64,000 bases of DNA from Latescibacteria bacterium UBA6620. Its GTDB lineage: Bacteria > Latescibacterota > UBA2968. Below are positions 1,961 through 57,611 of the stretch, piece after piece. The stretch covers positions 2,804 to 66,803 of the forward strand of contig DJHM01000042.1 of the NCBI GenBank assembly GCA_002433075.1, in the 5' to 3' direction. Each line of letters opens with the position of its first letter. Position 1 is the first letter of the stretch. The notes beneath the pieces were generated by a model. It made no database searches, was not told the DNA's origin, and saw only the letters and a list, made by a program, of their open reading frames with translations. A program made the position numbers and the translations under genes.

Positions 1961-3466
1961 TCACATCAAGGCAAGGATATCATCATACACGGCCCTTGCT
2001 CCGAACAACGTGAACACCAGCCCGCAGATCACATTCATCCACACCAGAAACGGTCCCATCCTGAACGGCTTGGGCAACCACTTCCGATCGATCCACACCA
2101 TCGCGAAACACCAGGGGCCAGCTAGAAACACGCCGGTGACGTGCAGGGGAATCGTCATCATCGAAATCGGGTTCCATCCAATCCCTGCGGGATCGTTCAG
2201 CGCCGTCCACCAGGCCACGCAGACCAAAGCACCTCCTGCGATGGCCGTGTAGGTCAGCGTCCACACCCTTGTTCTCTCCAGGCTAAGCTCAGACCACTCG
2301 GGACGAGCGGATCGAACACACTCGTGAGCGGTCCGCACGTAGAGTTCGAACGCGCCGTAGACCGTACCGAAAATCGCGAAGAACACACCCGCCTTGTAGA
2401 GCCCCCCGAGAAACCGCTGCACCCAGGAGCTCTCGTGCAGACCCGTCAGGAAGACCACCTGGTGATTGTAGAGGTCCATCCCGGAAGGCACGATCTCGTT
2501 GGGGTGAAGCAGGGTCGCCCCCAGGATCAGGAACGCGGCCGTAAACAGAAGCACGCTGATGAATGAAACCACCGAATCGATCAACGGGGCCTTCAGCCAC
2601 GCCAGTCCGAGCGCCACGTTTTCATCGTCTGTCGCAAGCGGTACCGGTGCATCGGTGTCGACGTCTTTTCGCCGCCCGATCATCCCCCAACCCTTCTCCC
2701 GTAACATTCCCACGTAGCCCACGTAGTCCTGGACGCCTCCGCCCATCACTCCCATATAGGCCACCATTTCGACAATCAACGTCCGATCCGCGAACAACGG
2801 GTTTCGGGCTACCCAATCGGGGTAGGCTGGCAGGGAGGGCACGACAGCACCCATCAGGGCCGCAGACCAGTCCGGGGATGCCGCGACTGTGGCCACCAGC
2901 ATCACGACAAGCATCGAGCTGACCAGGATCGTCTGCGCCTTTTCCAGGAGCCCATAGCTCTGCAACAGCGTCAGCGCGATCAGCAGAACGATGAACAGCA
3001 ACGCAATCACGTGCGGGTAGGCCGCCGGGTTCTCGAACAGTACCCATGAGGTGATCGTGCCCAGCATAATCGGCAGACTCGACAGGTAAAACGGGAACGA
3101 GACGACCATCACCAGCCCGACAAACCACGGGAAGAGCCCACGCGGTCCAGGCAGCACGGCCCACCGGTCCATCGGATGTTCCCCGGTCAGGGTCATATAC
3201 CTGGCGGCTGAGTAGACCTGCACGATTTTGGTAATCGTGAACAGGCTAAACGCCCAGAACATCCCGTACCCGAAAATGGCGCCGCTGCGCGACGCCCACA
3301 CCGTCTCCCCACTTCCGATCGTCACCGAGGCAATGATTGCCCCGGGACCAAAGAAGGCAAGGAAATCCCGGACCTTCTTCGAAGTCAGCTGCGGAGCGAG
3401 TGCCGGGAAGGTGAGGGATGAATTGTCTGCCAAATCTGCCTCCTTCGACGCAATCAGAGCGGGCAA
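1961..3466 (-). CDS. Nramp/APC-superfamily-like membrane transporter (putative divalent-metal transporter).
   Basis: About 500 aa with 11-12 predicted transmembrane helices. The N-terminal FGPGAIIASVTIGSGE motif resembles the Nramp TM1 GPG region, but the canonical DPGN and MPH motifs are not evident. It ends the suc operon on the minus strand. Confidence 0.35.
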   Translation of the reverse strand: MPALIASKEADLADNSSLTFPALAPQLTSKKVRDFLAFFGPGAIIASVTIGSGETVWASRSGAIFGYGMFWAFSLFTITKIVQVYSAARYMTLTGEHPMDRWAVLPGPRGLFPWFVGLVMVVSFPFYLSSLPIMLGTITSWVLFENPAAYPHVIALLFIVLLIALTLLQSYGLLEKAQTILVSSMLVVMLVATVAASPDWSAALMGAVVPSLPAYPDWVARNPLFADRTLIVEMVAYMGVMGGGVQDYVGYVGMLREKGWGMIGRRKDVDTDAPVPLATDDENVALGLAWLKAPLIDSVVSFISVLLFTAAFLILGATLLHPNEIVPSGMDLYNHQVVFLTGLHESSWVQRFLGGLYKAGVFFAIFGTVYGAFELYVRTAHECVRSARPEWSELSLERTRVWTLTYTAIAGGALVCVAWWTALNDPAGIGWNPISMMTIPLHVTGVFLAGPWCFAMVWIDRKWLPKPFRMGPFLVWMNVICGLVFTLFGARAVYDDILALM

Positions 3467-3499
3467 ACCGAACGGGCGAGCCCAACGAACTCAAACGGA

Positions 3500-4921
3500 C
3501 TATATATGGATCGCTGCTTTGTCTACGGCCAGGGCCGCTTCCTTCATCGCCTCGGGGAGAGTCGGGTGTGCGTGCATCGTCCGTGCGATGTCTTCCGCGC
3601 TGCTCGAGAATTCCATCGCAAGAACGGCTTCTGACAGCATCTCCGACGCGCGCGCCCCAAGGATGTGCACACCTAGGACCCGATCGGTCCGGGCATCGGC
3701 GATCATCTTGACCATCCCCTCGGTGTCTTCGAGACTGTGGGCCCGGCCGTTCGCCATAAACGGAAACTTGCCAACCTTCACGTCGCCGACTTTCTCGCGA
3801 GCGAGCTCCTCCGTCAAGCCCACCGAGGCCAGCTCCGGATGTGTGTAGACAACCCCGGGCACGGTATCGTAGTTCACGTGGCCGGCCTTGCCCGCGATCA
3901 GCTCCACCGCCGCGATCCCCTCCTCCTCAGCCTTGTGCGCCAGCATCGGCCCGGTGATGACATCTCCGATGGCGTAGACGCCTTCGACCGAAGTCCGGTA
4001 CGCGTAGTCCACGACGATGCGCCCACGGTCATCGAACTCCACACCGGCTTCCGCGGCACCCAGCCCCTCGGCGTTCGCTCGTCGGCCGACGGCCACGAGC
4101 AATCGGTCGCATACCTCCGAGTGACGTTCTCCGCCTTTCTCAGACAGCGTCACATGTACCCGTCCATCTTTCACTTCGCCGGTGTCGGCCTTGCTTTCCA
4201 AACAGAATGAAATGCCCTGCTGCTCCAACGCCTTCTGCAGCTGAACGGCCATTTCTATATCCATCCCCGGTACGATCTGCGGCATCAGTTCCAGCACGGA
4301 TACCTCGGACCCCAATCGGTTCCAGACCGACCCTAATTCCAGACCAATCGCCCCGCCCCCGATCACGATCAGCTTCTCAGGCACCTCTTCGAACCCAAGC
4401 GCTTCGGTCGAAGACACGATGTGCTGCCCGTCGAAAGGCAGGTTCGGAAGCTCCACTGCGACAGACCCCGTCGCGAGGATGATGTGTTTTGCAGAGTACT
4501 GCCCCTCCCCCTTCCCGTTACTCACTTCGACGACACCGCCACCGGCAAGCCGTCCCAGCCCTTGCAGGTGTGTCACCTTGTTTTTCCGAAACAGCCCACG
4601 GATGCCACCGGTCATTCTCTTCACGATGCCGGACTTGCGTTTCATCATCGTCGCCAGATCCAGAGACACGTCTTTTGCCACAACGCCGTGACGATCCAGT
4701 GTCGATGCGGCCTGATGGTAGAGTTGACTCGATTCGAGCAACACTTTGCTCGGGATGCATCCGATGTTCAGACACGTCCCCCCCAACTGGGACATCTCAA
4801 CGCAGGCCGTGTTCATCGCGAGCTGAGCCGCCCGGATCGCGGCCACGTACCCGCCCGGGCCGGCGCCGATCACGATCACATCGTAGGTCTCGTCAGCCAA
4901 TGAAGTCCTCGGTGCGGCCAT
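3500..4921 (-). CDS. lpdA: Dihydrolipoyl dehydrogenase (E3 component).
   Basis: FAD-binding GAGPGGY motif and redox-active disulfide GGTCLNIGCIPSK, plus a C-terminal dimerisation domain. It lies downstream of sucAB. Confidence 0.92.
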   Translation of the reverse strand: MAAPRTSLADETYDVIVIGAGPGGYVAAIRAAQLAMNTACVEMSQLGGTCLNIGCIPSKVLLESSQLYHQAASTLDRHGVVAKDVSLDLATMMKRKSGIVKRMTGGIRGLFRKNKVTHLQGLGRLAGGGVVEVSNGKGEGQYSAKHIILATGSVAVELPNLPFDGQHIVSSTEALGFEEVPEKLIVIGGGAIGLELGSVWNRLGSEVSVLELMPQIVPGMDIEMAVQLQKALEQQGISFCLESKADTGEVKDGRVHVTLSEKGGERHSEVCDRLLVAVGRRANAEGLGAAEAGVEFDDRGRIVVDYAYRTSVEGVYAIGDVITGPMLAHKAEEEGIAAVELIAGKAGHVNYDTVPGVVYTHPELASVGLTEELAREKVGDVKVGKFPFMANGRAHSLEDTEGMVKMIADARTDRVLGVHILGARASEMLSEAVLAMEFSSSAEDIARTMHAHPTLPEAMKEAALAVDKAAIHI

Positions 4922-12691: not shown

Positions 12692-14092
12692 ATGGGAAAA
12701 CCACTGTTCAACAAAGTCTGGGATGCGCACGCAGTCCGTAGGTTGCCTTCGGGAAAAACACAGCTGTTCGTTGGACTCCACCTGGTTCACGAAGTCACCA
12801 GTCCTCAGGCCTTCGACATGATGCGCGAGAGCGGTCTCGAAGTCGCCTACCCGGACCGCACCTTCGCAACCGTCGACCACATCGTGCCCACAGATGTTCG
12901 GACACGCCCGTTCGCCGACGAAATGGCTGAGCAAATGATGGTCGCGATCGAGAAAAACGCTGATGAGTTCGAGATCCCTCTGTTCGACATGAACGACGAC
13001 CGTCAAGGCATCGTTCACGTCATCGGTCCCGAGTTGGGACTGAGCCAGCCCGGAATGACGATCGCCTGCGGGGACAGCCATACGTCAACCCACGGGGCCT
13101 TCGGAGCCATCGCCTTCGGCATCGGCACTTCACAGGTAAGGGATGTGCTTGCCACACAATGCCTTGCGATGGATCCCCTGAAGGTTCGCCTCATAAAGGT
13201 CGACGGGGACCTCGCCGACGGCGTCTACGCCAAAGACGTCGTACTCAACGTCATCCGCCAGTTGGGCGTCAAGGGCGGCGTGGGGTATGCCTACGAGTTC
13301 GGGGGCGACACCCTGGCTCGGATGTCGATGGAAGGCAGAATGTCGATCTGCAATATGTCGATCGAAGGCGGGGCGCGAGCCGGATACGTCAACCCCGACC
13401 AGACGACCTTCGACTATCTGGAGGGACGCCCTCACAGTCCAGCCGGAGATGCATTCGAACGAGCGGTCGACTGGTGGACGTCTATCGCATCTGACGAGGA
13501 TGCCGACTACGACGACGTCTACGATCTCGACGCCGCATCGATAGAACCGACCGTCACCTGGGGCATTACCCCCGGACAGGCCATTGGCGTAAGTGAAAAG
13601 GTCCCCGCCCTTACCGACCTGCAGGACGACGATCGGGATGTCGCGTGCGAAGCCTACGATTACATGGATTTCCAGCCCGGCCATCCCATCGCGGGAACCA
13701 GAATTGACGTCGCCTTCATCGGGTCGTGCACGAACAGCCGGATCTCCGACCTTCGTGAAGCGGCCCGAGTCGCCAAGGGCCGCAAGGTCGCCAGCCACGT
13801 CAAGCCGCTTGTCGTTCCCGGTTCAAAGAACGTGCTCGAAGCGGCCGAGGCAGAGGGCCTGCACGAAATTTTCATTGAGGCCGGGTTCGAATGGCGAAGC
13901 GCCGGATGTTCGATGTGTCTTGCCATGAACCCCGACAAACTTCAAGGCCGTCAGATTTCGGCCTCGTCCAGCAATCGAAATTTCAAGGGTCGTCAGGGAA
14001 GCCCAACGGGGCGCACGCTCCTGATGAGCCCCGCAATGGTCGCGGCCGCCGCGATCGCGGGTGAGATCACCGACGTTCGGCAAATGCTGTAA
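12692..14092 (+). CDS. leuC: 3-isopropylmalate dehydratase large subunit.
   Basis: Aconitase-family protein with an N-terminus typical of LeuC ([11 protein letters not shown]...[13 protein letters not shown]) and a Cys cluster (GSCTNS). Confidence 0.92.
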
Positions 14093-14106
14093 ACACCGAG
14101 GAAAAC

Positions 14107-14709
14107 ATGCCTGCTTCTTCCATCAGCCAGGTCGCAGGTCCCGGAATCGCTCTCCGCGGGAGCGACATCGACACGGATCGCATTATCCCGGCGCGTTTCC
14201 TGCGAATGATTACGTTCGACGGACTTGGCGATCACGCCTTTGAAGACGACAGAAAGTCCAACCCAGAACACCCATTCAACGACGGCCGGTTTCGAGACGC
14301 TGCAGTGCTCGTAGCGAACGGCAACTTCGGGTGCGGATCATCCCGCGAACACGCGCCCCAAGCTCTTCAGCGTTGGGGAATCCAGGCGATCGTGGGCGAG
14401 TCGTTCGCGGAGATCTTCCAGGGCAATTGCACGGTAATGGGCATCCCCTGCGTAACCGCATCTTCCGCAGATGTGGCGAAACTCCAGGATGCCGTCGAAG
14501 CCGACCCCTCGCAGCCTCTGGATGTGGACCTAGCGAAGAAGACCGTCACCTGCGGGAACCTGGTCACGCAAGTCGACCTGCCGGAGGGAAACCGCGTGTC
14601 CCTGCTCGAAGGAGCGTGGGATGCGACAGGTATGCTTCTGGAGGGCGCCGACGCTGTCAGGGAGGTGGCGAACAGCCTCCCCTACGCACGCGGATTCGAG
14701 CGGGACTGA
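14107..14709 (+). CDS. leuD: 3-isopropylmalate dehydratase small subunit.
   Basis: About 200-aa aconitase swivel domain with the GDNIDTDRIIPARFL-like motif. Confidence 0.9.
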   Translation: MPASSISQVAGPGIALRGSDIDTDRIIPARFLRMITFDGLGDHAFEDDRKSNPEHPFNDGRFRDAAVLVANGNFGCGSSREHAPQALQRWGIQAIVGESFAEIFQGNCTVMGIPCVTASSADVAKLQDAVEADPSQPLDVDLAKKTVTCGNLVTQVDLPEGNRVSLLEGAWDATGMLLEGADAVREVANSLPYARGFERD

Positions 14710-33651: not shown

Positions 33652-35870
33652 CATCTTCACCAGCCGACGAGGGCTTCGGGAGCGCGAGACTCGACCCTCC
33701 GGACGACGTGATCGCCGGGAGCCGCAGAACCTGGCGATTGACCTATACGGCTGGCAACCACGCGATCCGCCCCGGCGGCAGGATCCGCATCTATTGCGAC
33801 AGCGACACCGACCGTGCCCTGCCCCAGTTCGGGGATCCATCCGGTCCCGACTACACGACCGTCACCACACCCGACGGAGTGTTCGCCGACGCGCTGGCTC
33901 CGAACTACAAGGTCCTGATCCTCACCCTGCACGGCCGAGATCTGCGGCCCGGCGAACAGCTCGTCGTTACCTATGGCGACACCTCGAGCGGCAGTCCCGG
34001 ATTCCGATCCCAGACGTTCCTCGAAAATCGCCACACGTTCGACATCTCTGTTGCCCGATCAACTGAAGACCCGCTCCATCCCCTTCCCGAATCGCCCGCC
34101 CAACGCATCGTGGGCGGGGACATTGATCGACTCGTGGTCGTCGCTCCATCGACAGCCGTCGTTGGTCGCCCCTTCCGTCTCCTCGTTCGGGCGGAGGACC
34201 CGTGGGGGAATCCAGCATCGTTGTTCAGGTCGCGGGTCACCCTGACCAGCGATGCCGTCAAGCTGCCTCAGTCCGAAATCGAATTCACGGAAGCCGAGGG
34301 TGGGGTTCGGTGGCTTGACGAATGTCGCCCGAGTAAAACCGGGCGGGCCACCATCGAAGCCGAAACGGATGGCGGTTGCGTCGGGCGGAGCAACCCCTTG
34401 AGAATCGAGGACGAATCTCCGGACCACGAACTGTTCTGGGGCGACTATCACGGCGGCCAGGTCGAGAACGCCGAAAAGATCGACGACTTCTTCCGCTACG
34501 CACGGGATGTTGCAGGCATTCAGTTCGCAAGCTATCAGCGGAACGATACGGTCCACTCGGACGCGGAGTATGCCGTCCAGCAGGAGGTCGAACGCGCCTA
34601 TCACGATCCCGGCCATTTCGTCGCCATCCCCGGATACGAGTGGTCCCCCGCAACACGCGTCGGAGGTCACCACAACGTCTACTTCAGGCGATTCGACCAG
34701 CCCATCCGCAGATGGACGAGCGCCCGTCTGCCTGGCCACGACACGCGCTACGACCTCCCCCACGTACGTGACCTCTACCGTGCCTTTCGCAACACGGACA
34801 CCGTCATCACACCCCACGTGGGCGGAAATCATTCCAACCTGCATTGGCACGATCCCACGGTCGAACCCGCGGTTGAAATCACCTCGGACCACGGCAGCTT
34901 CGAATGGATGCTGAAGGAAATTCTCGCCTACGACTATCGTATGGGCTTCTTCGGTGGAAGCGACAGCCACACGGGCCGCCCCGGCCGTGACAGTCCCGGT
35001 CACCAGCACCGGCGATACGCAAACTCCGGACTGGCCGGCGTCTATGCCGAGGACGTCACGATCGACGCGCTGCTCGACGCCCTCAAGGCTCGGCGCATCT
35101 ACGCCACGACCGGTCCCCGCATCCAGGTAAAGACCGAGGCCGACGGCCATCCGATGGGAGCCGAATATGCGACCTCTTCATCTCCTGAGATCAAGGCCTC
35201 TGTCACCGGTACGGCTCCGCTCGAGTCCGTAGAACTCTACCGGGGTCACGAACCCGTCTACGCCTACCCCATCGACACGCCGACGACACCCACTCGTGTC
35301 CGAATCCTGTGGGAGGGCGCCAGCCGTGAGACGAGCTACTCAGGCGTCGTGTGGGAAGGCTCGCTCAGCATCCTGGACGGGGAGCTGTCGAACGTCCACA
35401 AATTGCGTTTCGACAGCCCTCGCTCGTATCTGTCAGATACGCCCCCGGGGGGGATCTCGTGGTACTCAGTCACGTGTGGTTATCGAAGTGGATTTACCTT
35501 CGATGTCGACTCACAGGAAGCCCGTCTCGACCTCGCGTTTACGACGAGTGTGATGACCGGCCCGAAGTACGAGAACCGTGGAGAGAGTGGTGCGCTGCGC
35601 ATCGCACACGCACCTGCTGACCGAGTCGCTTCGACAATCCAGGTCGCCGAGCTTTCCGACGGACCTCGAGTCATCGATCTGGGTCATCTGAACCGCCGCA
35701 TCACCATCGCCCTTGCCCCCGAACCCACCACCGAGCACGTCGAACTTTCCTTCGAAGATCCTGCACCTCAACCCGGGGTCAATCCCTACTGGCTTCGGAT
35801 TGTCCAGGTCGATCAGGAAATGGCCTGGTCCAGCCCGATCTACGTCGACTTCGCGGCGCCTTCAGGTTAG
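33648..35870 (+). CDS. DUF3604-like putative metal-dependent phosphoesterase/hydrolase, with an N-terminal extension of about 260 aa.
   Basis: The C-terminal region matches the DUF3604 pattern (LFWGDYHGG...GYEWS...TPHVGGNHS...SDSHTG...GLAGVYAEDVTIDALLDALKARRIYATTGPRI). ATGA start/stop overlap with gatB. Confidence 0.5.
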   Translation: MTSSPADEGFGSARLDPPDDVIAGSRRTWRLTYTAGNHAIRPGGRIRIYCDSDTDRALPQFGDPSGPDYTTVTTPDGVFADALAPNYKVLILTLHGRDLRPGEQLVVTYGDTSSGSPGFRSQTFLENRHTFDISVARSTEDPLHPLPESPAQRIVGGDIDRLVVVAPSTAVVGRPFRLLVRAEDPWGNPASLFRSRVTLTSDAVKLPQSEIEFTEAEGGVRWLDECRPSKTGRATIEAETDGGCVGRSNPLRIEDESPDHELFWGDYHGGQVENAEKIDDFFRYARDVAGIQFASYQRNDTVHSDAEYAVQQEVERAYHDPGHFVAIPGYEWSPATRVGGHHNVYFRRFDQPIRRWTSARLPGHDTRYDLPHVRDLYRAFRNTDTVITPHVGGNHSNLHWHDPTVEPAVEITSDHGSFEWMLKEILAYDYRMGFFGGSDSHTGRPGRDSPGHQHRRYANSGLAGVYAEDVTIDALLDALKARRIYATTGPRIQVKTEADGHPMGAEYATSSSPEIKASVTGTAPLESVELYRGHEPVYAYPIDTPTTPTRVRILWEGASRETSYSGVVWEGSLSILDGELSNVHKLRFDSPRSYLSDTPPGGISWYSVTCGYRSGFTFDVDSQEARLDLAFTTSVMTGPKYENRGESGALRIAHAPADRVASTIQVAELSDGPRVIDLGHLNRRITIALAPEPTTEHVELSFEDPAPQPGVNPYWLRIVQVDQEMAWSSPIYVDFAAPSG

Positions 35871-55523: not shown

Positions 55524-55880
55524 TTGAACACCCTCGGCAACCATCTCCTCGTCGAACTTTACGACTGCCCTCAGGACCGCCTGAACGACGCACCTTTTCT
55601 GGAGCGTACTCTCGAAGACAGTGCCAGGGACGCCGGAGCCACCATCGTCATCTCATCCTTCTACCCGTTCTCACCTCACGGCGTGTCAGGCGTGGTCGTC
55701 ATTACCGAAAGCCACCTCGCCATCCACACGTGGCCCGAGCGCGGCTACGCTGCTGTCGACGTCTTCACCTGCGGCGACGCCGTCGACCCTCGCTCGATTG
55801 CCGAAGCCATCGTCATTGCTCTGGGTGCTAAACGCCACGAAATCATATCCCAACCAAGGGGCGAGTTCGGCAAGCTCTGA
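55524..55880 (+). CDS. speH: S-adenosylmethionine decarboxylase proenzyme (class 1b).
   Basis: LGNHLLVELYDC...GVSGVVVITESHLAIHTWPERGYAAVDVFTCGD aligns with Bacillus SpeH, including the ESH self-cleavage site. Putative TTG start. Confidence 0.8.
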   Translation: MNTLGNHLLVELYDCPQDRLNDAPFLERTLEDSARDAGATIVISSFYPFSPHGVSGVVVITESHLAIHTWPERGYAAVDVFTCGDAVDPRSIAEAIVIALGAKRHEIISQPRGEFGKL

Positions 55881-55985
55881 TACACGGACGGTATTCAGCT
55901 GGCGACCAGCTGGAAGGTTGGCCGCGTGTGCCGCTGGCCTAGCAGCGGGGATGTAGCGCCTGCCCTGAGTAGGAGCGCAGCTCCG

Positions 55986-56034
55986 TATCGAAGGGAGGGC
56001 CGCGTGCTGTGGCAGTGAAGCGCACCCCTCAATA
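55986..56034. repeat. Intact copy of a roughly 50-nt sequence. A second copy is split by the GIY-YIG gene.
   Basis: gtatcgaagggagggccgcgtgctgtggcagtgaagcgcacccctcaata. Its left half recurs at about 56128-56153 and its right half at 56479-56501. Confidence 0.55.
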
Positions 56035-56167
56035 GCTTTCCCATCGGTTTTCTGCGAACGGTACTGTGTCCGACAATGACCTTGCTCAAAGGGTGACCGT
56101 GTGCACGAGTGTCCTCGTTGCGAAATGGCGGAGATGTATCGAGGGCCGCGCACTGTGGCGAAGATCT

Positions 56168-56464
56168 ATGGCCTTCTATGTCTATATGCTCCTCTGCTCT
56201 GACGGTTCCTACTATACGGGCCACACGGACGCGATAGACACCAGGTGGGGACAACACAGGGCGGGCGAAGGAAGTCAGTACACGAAGAGTCGCCTGCCTG
56301 TGAAGTTGGTATGGGTGGGAAATTTCCCCACGCGGGAACAAGCCAAAGACTTCAAACTCAAGCTGAAGAAGTGGAACAGCGCAAGAAAGCGGTCCTGGCT
56401 GCCGGCGATGATGACGCGTTGTTGGAAGCAGCTAAAAAGTACGGGTGGGAAACTTACAGGATGA
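56168..56464 (+). CDS. GIY-YIG nuclease-superfamily protein (YhbQ-like).
   Basis: FYVYMLLCSDGSYYTGHTDAIDTRWGQHRAGEG...KSRLPVKLVW. About 98 aa. It is flanked by halves of a duplicated sequence. Confidence 0.65.
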   Translation: MAFYVYMLLCSDGSYYTGHTDAIDTRWGQHRAGEGSQYTKSRLPVKLVWVGNFPTREQAKDFKLKLKKWNSARKRSWLPAMMTRCWKQLKSTGGKLTG

Positions 56465-56588
56465 GAAAGCGAATCAAGCAGTGAAGCGCACCCCTCGATA
56501 CACCCCGGTCTTCGACCGGCATACTCGGGGACGAGGATGACCGCGTGCGCGGCAGATCGCCTCAAATAACCTCCCTTGGAGACCCGCG

Positions 56589-57611
56589 ATGCGTATCGGT
56601 GTAATCGGTACTGTCGGCCATCTTAACTACGTGCTCAATGGAATCCCCGTTCTCGACGGTGTCGAACTGGTCGCCGCGGCCGCGGGCACGCCTAACGAAG
56701 ACCTTGGTCGAATTCGAGCGCATAACGCGTTCTCAGACGAAACCATCTTCTACGACGACTGGATGACGATGTTGGACAAGGCCGATCTCGAGATTGTGGC
56801 GGTCTGCCGGCCGTACCCGATGAACGCCGAGGCCACCATCGCCGCGCTCGAACGAAACATTCACGTCGTCACCGAAAAGCCTGTCGCCACGACGTTCGAC
56901 ACCCTGAACAAAGTGGAGGAAGCACGAGCCGGAAGTAGCGCCAGGCTCACCACGATGTTTGGAATGCGGTTCGAACCCGCGTTCCGTGCGGCCAGGAAGG
57001 CTGTCGAAGACGGACGGATCGGTGAACCCGTACTCGCTGCGGGGCAAAAGTCTTACAAGTTCGGCAACCGACCCGAGTTCTTCAGGAATCGTGACACGTA
57101 CGGCGGATCGATCCTTTGGGTGGGCATTCACGCCGTGGACTTCGTGCGGTGGGTTTCCGGACTGGACTACACTCTGGTTACCGCACTGCACGGAAACGCT
57201 GCACATCCGGACTACCCGGGCTGCGAAGATCACGGAGGAATCCTCTACCGCTTCGCGAACGGCGGTACTGCCGTCATCAATCTCGACTACCTCCGCCCGG
57301 AAGGGGCCCCGACCCACGGTGACGACCGCCTGCGGATTGCCGGTACCGAGGGTATCGTTGAAGTCATCGATGCGGGTAGCCGTGCGGTTCTACTTCGCGG
57401 TGGGGCCACCGAGGATCTCCCGCTCGCGGAGTCCGTTAATCTACTCGTGGATTTCGTCGGCGACCTCCGGGGCGGCCCCTCCCACCTGATCGAACCCTAC
57501 GAAGCCACTTATGTGACCCGCCTTGCCCTGATGGCGCGTGAAGCCGCAGACCGGGGTAAGATCCTTTCTCTTCCGACACCGCCCGGTCAATCGAAAGTTT
57601 TCGGCCAGTAA
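56589..57611 (+). CDS. Gfo/Idh/MocA-family NAD(P)-dependent oxidoreductase.
   Basis: N-terminal Rossmann fold (MRIGVIGTVGH) and a C-terminal alpha/beta domain. Confidence 0.75.
   Translation: MRIGVIGTVGHLNYVLNGIPVLDGVELVAAAAGTPNEDLGRIRAHNAFSDETIFYDDWMTMLDKADLEIVAVCRPYPMNAEATIAALERNIHVVTEKPVATTFDTLNKVEEARAGSSARLTTMFGMRFEPAFRAARKAVEDGRIGEPVLAAGQKSYKFGNRPEFFRNRDTYGGSILWVGIHAVDFVRWVSGLDYTLVTALHGNAAHPDYPGCEDHGGILYRFANGGTAVINLDYLRPEGAPTHGDDRLRIAGTEGIVEVIDAGSRAVLLRGGATEDLPLAESVNLLVDFVGDLRGGPSHLIEPYEATYVTRLALMAREAADRGKILSLPTPPGQSKVFGQ

Follow-up and report, generated by a model that had tools for sequence, protein, structure and literature searches.

We analysed a 64,000-nucleotide (nt) stretch of contig DJHM01000042.1 from Latescibacteria bacterium UBA6620 (the window, to which all unlabelled coordinates refer), with attention to a small GIY-YIG nuclease gene and the repeats that surround it. 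Gene and repeat units make up a lineage-specific block of 708 nt (55881–56588), which is absent from syntenic relatives and lies between an AdoMet decarboxylase gene on its left (55524–55880) and a Gfo/Idh/MocA oxidoreductase gene on its right (56589–57611). An earlier interpretation drawn from the bare letters (the sequence-only reading) had proposed that an intact sequence of about 50 nt beside the gene is the empty site of a selfish nuclease gene, and that a second, split copy is the site that the gene has filled.

An inactivated nuclease gene between repeat halves

The GIY-YIG gene occupies 56168–56484 on the forward strand, of which 56168–56464 is annotated as an open reading frame (ORF) of 98 amino acids (aa). 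Its GIY-YIG identity, already proposed by the sequence-only reading, is borne out by a match of residues 3–74 to PF01541 (E 8e-16), the sole Pfam match; a search of NCBIfam matched no family. The 98-aa protein is MBK36056.1 in GenBank, where it is labelled 'hypothetical protein', and an exact look-up finds the identical protein and locus in several independent assemblies of a marine metagenome-assembled genome labelled Gemmatimonadota.

The nuclease gene in the window is dead, and the locus is now a relic. In an alignment with 21 homologues the family consensus continues '...KGWSRAKKEALI.GDW..L..LA', but the window ORF departs from the family frame after codon 71, through a 1-nt deletion at about 56380/56381 (codon 71/72). 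In the +2 frame the sequence carries on with the expected tail (RKKAVLAAGDDDALLEAAKKYGWETYRMRKRIKQ) up to a TGA (56482–56484) inside the right half of the split repeat; the ancestral protein reconstructed in this way has 105 aa and a single GIY-YIG domain. Codon 63 (56354–56356, AAA) specifies Lys, whereas Glu stands there in about 90% of homologues (21 of the 23 rows aligned); in the GIY-YIG superfamily the Glu at the equivalent position is the metal-binding catalytic residue. The catalytic core, which comprises the GIY and YIG tyrosines, an Arg and this Glu, is thus broken in the window copy by Glu63→Lys and the loss of frame. A contig that is 98% identical (L013) has the frameshift in common with the window and keeps Glu63, while a second frameshift at its codon 6 removes the GIY strand. 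Because the inactivating changes are partly shared and partly private, we take the gene to be a pseudogene rather than the product of a sequencing error.

Both copies of the 50-nt sequence that had been reported are real, with adjusted limits. The intact copy lies at 55985–56034 on the forward strand, its start having been placed at 55986. For the split copy, also on the forward strand, the right half (GCAGTGAAGCGCACCCCTCGATA) is at 56478–56500, whereas the left half (GTATCGAGGGCCGCGCACTGTGGC) is at 56136–56159 and not at about 56128–56153. The gene does sit between these halves, but the statement that it fills the gap exactly is only approximately true: the ATG at 56168 comes 8 nt past the left half, the annotated ORF ends at 56464, 13 nt short of the right half, and the ancestral frame of this frameshifted gene enters the right half. 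The 19-mer GCAGTGAAGCGCACCCCTC has exactly two occurrences in the 64 kb, compared with 0.01 expected, and the left-half 24-mer with up to three mismatches also has two (0 expected). Between the copies the right halves are identical at 22 of 23 positions and the left halves differ by a 5-nt indel and a GTGC→GCAC change, while the copies as wholes are separated by a single clean 319-nt indel with a junction ambiguity of just 2 nt (GC). In the left halves (55995–56013 and 56141–56159), GTGC and GCAC are reverse complements of each other, which points to a 4-nt flip inside the spacer rather than to two independent substitutions. The further ggccgcgtgc-like 10-mers that had been mentioned are present at 55920, 55998 and 56539, with one more at 56145 at two mismatches, but there is no clear enrichment in the window as a whole (17 found, 10.4 expected). 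The sequence-only reading missed that the two halves of the split copy are also inverted repeats of each other. As a separate observation, L013 (1789–2371, corresponding to 55956–56537 of the window) has the same A→G change (GCGCACCCC to GCGCGCCCC) in both right-half copies, 466 nt apart, which points either to gene conversion that linked the copies or to a C–G pair selected for in parallel.

The 50-nt sequence is the junction of two inverted units of a larger repeat, and not a target site. Forward unit F1 (55956–55997, forward strand) reads GCGCCTG-CCCTGAGTAG-GAGC-GCA-GCTC-CGTATCGAAGGG-AG and scores 33.5 bits (E about 1e-5) with the covariance model of the unit described below. Forward unit F2 (56097–56147, forward strand) is degenerate (19.3 bits, E about 0.02) and lies upstream of the gene, directly 5' of it. 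Inverted unit R2 (56489–56537, reverse strand) begins 4 nt past the ancestral stop codon, reads TCCTCGT-CCCCGAGTAT-GCCGGTC-GAA-GACCGGG-GTGTATCGAGGGG-TG on the minus strand and scores 33.0 bits (E about 1.3e-5). The units carry a 5' tag, and on both strands these tags face away from the gene. The intact copy begins with the 3' end of F1, continues with a spacer of ~25 nt (CCGCGTGCTGTGGC + AGTGAAGCG) and closes with ~13 nt from the start of an inverted unit (CACCCCTCAATAG), here called remnant R1, the remainder of which is undetected by the covariance model. In the split copy, the left half is the 3' end of F2 plus CCGCGCACTGTGGC, and the right half leads from the terminal codon and stop of the ancestral ORF across 4 nt into the start of R2. 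Two weak candidates adjoin these elements on the forward strand: a degenerate copy of the unit-proximal spacer (GGTTGGCCGCGTGTGCCGCTGGC, 55916–55940), picked out by eye and missed by the model, and a third, degenerate copy of the dimer junction (GGATGACCGCGTGCGCGGCAGATCGCCTCAAATA, 56535–56568), picked out by repeat comparison and by eye.

The repeat unit in other genomes and its partner gene

The oriented consensus of the unit is CCGYTCR-CCCCGAGTR-[covarying stem-loop]-GTAWCGAGGGG. The 5' tag is CCGYTCR, CCCC/GGGG form the outer helix, GAGTR ... GTAWCGA make up a conserved internal loop, and the inner stem-loop covaries freely. In L009, the contig that encodes the closest intact homologue (P0002, 61% identity), the unit reads CCCCGAGTAG-[stem-loop]-GTAACGAGGGG and is larger than the 50-mer. 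We scanned one genome per species with the pattern CCCCGAGTR-N10-28-GTAWCGAGGGG and obtained matches in at least 120 genome stretches; all statistics on units and their neighbourhoods given here rest on these stretches, that is, on the matches listed. They come from many phyla, Actinomycetota, Chloroflexota, Binatia, Pseudomonadota, Planctomycetota, Armatimonadota and Bacteroidota among them. The 5' context of the matches is CCGYTCR. Of the 117 distinct units, 100 contain a stem of 4 bp or longer in the middle, which the pattern leaves unconstrained. Elsewhere the units stand singly or as tight inverted dimers of less than 100 nt, in both relative orientations (10 '+-' and 10 '-+'). Gordonia asplenii has the unit on many contigs; in one of them it forms a tandem array with a period of 122 nt and 5.6 copies (L186, 2433–3131), in another it forms clusters of alternating orientation (L096, 6130–6785), and the 8-kb stretches fetched around these two contain no GIY-YIG gene.

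With a covariance model built from 78 units of GTDB genomes, to which neither the window nor its close relatives contributed, precisely three units are detected in the 64 kb, namely F1, F2 and R2, all at this locus; the next-best match scores 15 bits (E 0.2). In an alignment of 148 model-aligned units all five inner pairs covary, and none of 500 shuffles reaches the observed covariation score. This alignment was fitted to the model and hence favours pairing, but the perfect stems in the raw pattern matches are independent of it. The outer helix shows compensations from C–G to U–A, which at the pair concerned in F1 occur in 13 sequences; F1 itself has the compensated helix CCCT/AGGG, and what looks like an extra A in GTATCGAAGGG is the partner of its CCCT. 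Matches resembling CCCGAGTA at 34327, 39667, 41483 and 44687 were considered and set aside as chance, since they lack the rest of the unit and the covariance model finds none there. Rfam has nothing meaningful at the locus (E-value mode) and no gathering-score matches in 36 related loci, and a literature search with the motif strings themselves returned unrelated primer matches only.

The same arrangement of forward unit, GIY-YIG gene and inverted unit recurs around homologues at 45–61% identity. It is present in two Binatia contigs (L163 and L123), whose proteins are only about 45% identical to that of the window, and the covariance model finds it in L009–L012 and L023; around the gene of L009 the unit occurs three times forward and once inverted. 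L014 (P0003, 51% identity) has a downstream unit by the model and a degenerate upstream unit by eye, L091 has units upstream of the gene only, and L107 has a unit downstream of a truncated GIY-YIG gene. The spacing is also conserved. Forward units end 15–35 nt before the start codon, with the placement of F2 relative to the ATG matching that in L163, L123, L009 and L023, and the stop codon is 1–4 nt from the inverted unit in the window (4 nt), L163 and L123. Only 4 of the at least 120 stretches contain a GIY-YIG gene (L163, L123, L091 and L107), and the units adjoin it in each. GIY-YIG is the only cargo found between inverted units 150–2500 nt apart, and clustering of the ORFs near units revealed no other recurrent protein family and no Y1 transposase (RAYT). 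Since the same unit brackets homologous genes on unrelated contigs, the link between repeat and gene is real and not a coincidence.

We also surveyed the flanks of the gene in 67 metagenomic loci that encode relatives and in 5 further loci. Of the 17 close homologues (44% identity or more), 12 have significant inverted repeats across the gene, as do 13 of 13 members of a second protein group, which is flanked by repeats resembling the NTS repeats of Neisseria; AT-rich distant homologues (UPF0213-like) have no flanking inverted repeats in the surveyed loci. The flanking repeat families differ among loci (CCGCTCATCCTGAGCTTGTCGAAGG..., CCGTTCGTCCCCGCGAAAGCGGGGACCCAG and others), and ORF-less inverted dimers of these repeats, with unrelated spacers, occur elsewhere in the surveyed loci. 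The CCGYTCR tag is common to the repeats of both protein groups, which argues for a common recognition mode. One locus (L029, 1701–3007) has a 62-nt long-hairpin repeat every 225 nt on both sides of its GIY-YIG homologue, a regular array and not a flanking pair, the downstream part of which Tandem Repeats Finder reports with a period of 225, 2.8 copies and 91% matches. Odd C-terminal tails (GSTSSP, LRQAQDER, VRLAHHER) recur among homologues, as in P0007, P0017, P0025, P0043 and P0059. They arise where an ORF call extends into the downstream unit and the flanking hairpin repeat is translated, as is directly visible in L015, L016 and L009, and could quickly mark repeat-flanked GIY-YIG genes in protein databases.

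Origin of the block and competing explanations

Relatives keep the order of the surrounding genes (Amidohydro_2, Rieske, Pyr_redox_2, PhyH, AP_endonuc_2, AdoMet_dc, GFO, Peptidase_M24 and so on) without the block. About 13 nt separate the AdoMet_dc stop from the GFO start in L021 (GFO 77% identical), 295 nt of unrelated sequence separate the two genes in L020 (79%), and two more distant relatives, L209/L210 and a JGI contig (66% and 64%), have a gap of 2 nt. None of these four syntenic gene-less relatives contains the 50-mer, and the covariance model finds no unit in 42 kb of L020 and L021. Because the block is missing in all four, it must be derived, that is, gained in the lineage of the window. 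Two further differences were seen in this region. The AdoMet decarboxylase just upstream of the insertion site is a stand-alone protein of 118 aa in the window, L020 and L021, and in distant syntenic relatives (e.g. L209, 1805–2998) it is fused to a spermidine/spermine synthase domain (397–402 aa), a difference that is due to fission or domain loss. The 8.4-Mb relative L021 carries ISL3-family and Mutator-family transposase genes inside the otherwise syntenic region (3242–4483 and 13422–14669), and its GFO gene has an in-frame TAG stop at about 9960 and is called as a shortened product of 263 aa.

A comparable architecture has been described for the Ssn nucleases, which have a single GIY-YIG domain and a length of about 94 aa and are equated as a family with CDD cd10448 (Chenal et al., Nat Commun 2025, PMC11893778). 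Inverted hairpin repeats flank the ssn genes; their general name is 'SRM', and those of Neisseria are called NTS (CGTCATTCCCGCGMAVGCGGGAATCYRG). For SsnA to bind, the hairpin must be single-stranded DNA (ssDNA) and in one orientation; the enzyme cuts 5' of it, is inactive on double-stranded DNA (dsDNA) and RNA, and loses cleavage when the conserved tyrosines or the cofactor-binding site are mutated (PMC11893778). The authors noted the insertion sequence (IS)-like layout NTS-ssnA-NTS and an analogy to RAYTs and repetitive extragenic palindromic (REP) sequences, and put mobility forward as a hypothesis (PMC11893778). We consider it probable that our locus is a decayed module of this type, with a hairpin repeat, a small GIY-YIG nuclease gene and an inverted hairpin repeat.

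The spacer of the intact copy bears on how that copy arose. It is CCGCGYRCTGTGGC, which in the filled copy stands just upstream of the ATG, joined to AGTGAAGCG; the latter corresponds to the AG of the last codon, the TGA stop and the 4-nt spacer, and the intact copy thus holds CAG TGA AGCG. As the stop codon of homologues sits at the same place relative to the inverted unit, this piece of the spacer is best read as derived from the ORF. While an insertion into the split copy is conceivable, it is less parsimonious, because a stop-less ORF would have had to enter a dimer that happened to supply CAG-TGA. Judging from these junctions, it is more likely that the intact 50-mer represents a second inverted pair (F1 plus truncated R1), a duplicated module that would have lost its ORF by an internal deletion of 319 nt, much like a MITE (a miniature transposable element with inverted repeats).

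By analogy with SsnA (PMC11893778), the intact enzyme would have bound its cognate hairpin as ssDNA in one orientation and nicked 5' of the tag, within a few nucleotides of the hairpin. As the tags face outward, each strand would be nicked at the module's outer edge, and it is tempting to speculate that such nicks may cause the module, and dimers without the ORF, to be copied or to move. The nuclease gene has since been lost as a functional gene, through the shared frameshift, Glu63→Lys here and the second frameshift in L013.

Several observations speak against parts of this scenario. The layout of L009 and L023 is F-gene-F-R and not plain F-gene-R. The covariance model finds no copies of the unit outside the locus within the 64 kb, and the many-copy population typical of Ssn and REP systems is not seen there. 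Taken by itself, the inverted repeat in the window is weak (17 nt with 88% complementarity, z about 2.4), and neither the 50-mer nor its flanks nor the full intergenic region has a predicted folding energy better than that of shuffled sequences (z +0.2 to −0.9), so that single-sequence folding can neither back nor refute a structure here. The published SRM string, HGTCWYN(0-2)YYVSBRHN(0-5)WNVSBRGN(0-2)RNCYNB, has no match at the locus and one elsewhere in the 64 kb (0.8 expected), a failure of limited weight for a narrow criterion that also misses the clearly NTS-like repeats of L046–L088. Finally, the window protein scores 74–107 bits with 'group I' homologues (CSDGSYYTGHT...GYT..R.PV.LV...KGWSRAKK) and 68 bits with 1zg2, a UPF0213 structure (E 3.5e-16; 75 aa aligned at about 43% identity), whereas the proteins of the NTS-flanked 'group II' (NGTLYIG...GFT...KKWNRAWK..NP.W; L043–L058, L088), our proxy for cd10448/SsnA, reach only 35–49 bits in alignments of about 70 residues. 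We infer ssDNA nicking for the window clade by analogy, and the comparison of 68 bits for 1zg2 with 42–49 for NTS-flanked proteins counts against that extension.

The homing explanation of the sequence-only reading holds that a free-standing GIY-YIG selfish gene cut and invaded an existing 50-nt sequence, the neighbouring copy being an uninvaded target. GIY-YIG enzymes include homing endonucleases such as I-TevI and the Seg proteins, the indel between the copies is single and clean with its ambiguity of 2 nt, and the block is absent from syntenic relatives; the proposed link between repeat and gene is real, and a block did enter a site. However, homing enzymes have a separate DNA-binding domain and cut the dsDNA of the gene-less allele, and the window protein has a single domain with no DNA-binding module. 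What had been taken for the target is the ends of two inverted units that travel with the gene clade, down to homologues at 45% identity; the 50-mer is missing from the syntenic empty sites, and ORF-less dimers at other loci have unrelated spacers and thus no conserved target sequence. Nor is the 'empty' copy a virgin site: it retains the last codon, stop and 3' spacer of the ORF, which favours an ORF-deleted derivative, and a fragment inserted into a copy that already had the CAG-TGA end would be without a stop of its own. Homing at present is impossible with a gene inactivated by the frameshift and Glu63→Lys, and homing in the past strikes us as unlikely. That a local duplication functionally unrelated to the ORF arose by chance deserves next to no credence: the low inverted-repeat z-score and the unremarkable folding in the window speak for it, but a model built from outside sequences finds the unit only at this locus and around homologous genes elsewhere, and the recurrence already refutes it.

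A different possibility is that the units are ordinary GTAG-tagged REPs of a RAYT (Y1) elsewhere in the genome, among which the GIY-YIG gene landed or which it parasitises. GAGTAG stands just 5' of the inner stem, as in GTAG-tagged REPs, which Di Nocera et al. (2013, PMC3733652) report from Planctomycetes and other phyla, and in 116 of the 120 stretches listed the units are far from any GIY-YIG gene. Yet no Y1 transposase or other recurrent protein adjoins the units among the matches listed, their conserved flanks (the CCGYTCR tag and GTAWCGAGGGG) reach well past GTAG, the tag is also found on repeats that flank other GIY-YIG clades, and the distances from gene to unit are conserved; we hold this explanation to be highly improbable. 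The sequence-only reading had itself conceded that a common REP-like element flanking many unrelated genes would make the link coincidental. This applies only by half: the unit is indeed REP-like and dispersed in other genomes, but GIY-YIG is the only gene found between inverted units 150–2500 nt apart, and no other family recurs next to units among the matches listed. The units could also work as RNA between two metabolic genes, as a terminator, mRNA stabiliser or other motif, with the nuclease being incidental. Their strong covariation and two helices would suit such a role, the internal loop could by inspection form tandem G.A pairs as in known RNA motifs, and REPs act as RNA elements in some bacteria (PMC3733652). 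Against this, neither the locus nor the 36 related loci match an Rfam family, a scan of the block found no terminator-like or promoter-like sites, tight inverted dimers in both orientations (again among the matches listed) fit an element acting at the DNA level better, and SsnA does not bind RNA (PMC11893778). We would be very surprised if RNA function were the explanation.

Comparison with known systems

The decayed module resembles the homing enzymes I-TevI and Seg in its catalytic fold, and also in that a small nuclease gene is present or absent between genes that are themselves conserved. Unlike them, its protein of about 100 aa has no DNA-binding domain, and the gene-less syntenic alleles have no target sequence. 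TnpA of IS200/IS605 resembles the proposed enzyme in recognising ssDNA hairpins and cleaving beside them; its enzyme class differs, however, and its hairpins are direct on one strand, whereas those described here are inverted. A group I intron or another RNA with the ORF in the loop of a hairpin was considered and dropped, since the arms are two separate oriented units that are also dispersed as dimers.

The RAYT/REP-REPIN systems, or REPtrons, reportedly described by Nunvar (2010), Bertels & Rainey (2011) and Ton-Hoang (2012), offer a closer likeness: one enzyme gene between inverted palindromic repeats, ORF-less REPIN-like doublets, repeats that recur in a genome, and a GTAG-like motif adjoining the stem. 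They differ in that their enzyme is an HUH/Y1 transposase and not a GIY-YIG protein, and no RAYT was found near the units among the matches listed. CGTC-tagged REPs, as described by Di Nocera et al. (PMC3733652), are oriented stem-loops with a short 5' tag, occur mostly as head-to-head dimers and 'lack a dedicated transposase'. The NTS-like repeats that flank group II genes are of this CGTC-tagged type; our unit, in contrast, is a longer, interrupted hairpin outside the four CGTC families which that study describes (PMC3733652).

Three features of the module look new: its repeats do not fit the published SRM string; Rfam has no entry for them, although they are found in at least 120 stretches from many phyla; and the protein, by its alignment scores, appears closer to UPF0213 than to the NTS-flanked Ssn-like proteins. 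The closest solved relatives, PDB 1zg2 and 1ywl, are both UPF0213 proteins (UPF0213/YhbQ/SLX1-like), and we know of no repeat association for UPF0213 proteins; our literature search found none for small GIY-YIG proteins (YhbQ, COG2827/UPF0213) beyond Ssn. As a tentative proposal, about which we have more doubt than confidence, CCGYTCR-CCCCGAGTR-[stem-loop]-GTAWCGAGGGG could be an undescribed phylum-spanning REP-like family whose dedicated enzyme is a GIY-YIG clade (CSDGSYYTGHT...KGWSRAKK) distinct from cd10448. If true, at least two branches of GIY-YIG proteins gave rise to, or still hold, ssDNA nucleases that are guided by hairpins and whose repeats co-evolve with them, and the module of unit, gene and unit would be genuinely mobile, going in between genes and leaving behind MITE-like dimers that lack the ORF. 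The locus and its relatives also offer a candidate 'owner' for repeat families earlier found without a dedicated transposase, and a different, two-helix class of hairpins that covaries across more than 10 phyla and accompanies what looks like a sister protein clade would widen the pairs of enzyme and hairpin specificity of interest for ssDNA tools. For the window itself the message is modest, a pseudogene at a relic locus; as a comparative case, a module gained between adjacent genes and then decayed is what one expects of a selfish element and not of a housekeeping repair enzyme.

The nearest counterpart is Ssn. As there, a single-domain GIY-YIG protein of about 95–105 aa, recognised by Pfam, is encoded by a gene bracketed by inverted, oriented hairpin repeats of the 20–50-nt class with a conserved 5' tag (F2 and R2), and the repeats are dispersed in other genomes, often as inverted dimers, with a tag of the CCGYTCR/CGTC type in common. 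The flanking repeats of the second protein group are nearly the NTS consensus, e.g. GTTCATTCCCGCGAAAGCGGGAATCCAG in L088. Unlike the Ssn repeat, the hairpin of the window has two helices with a conserved internal loop and is not a simple stem-loop, and the window's copy of the gene is inactivated; judged from alignment scores, the protein probably falls outside the cd10448 clade, in a sister clade. The kind of system was published in 2025 (PMC11893778); our repeat class varies it in a new way, as the protein clade probably does too. That study left open how broadly the principle extends and whether the modules move, and the locus and its relatives bear on both.

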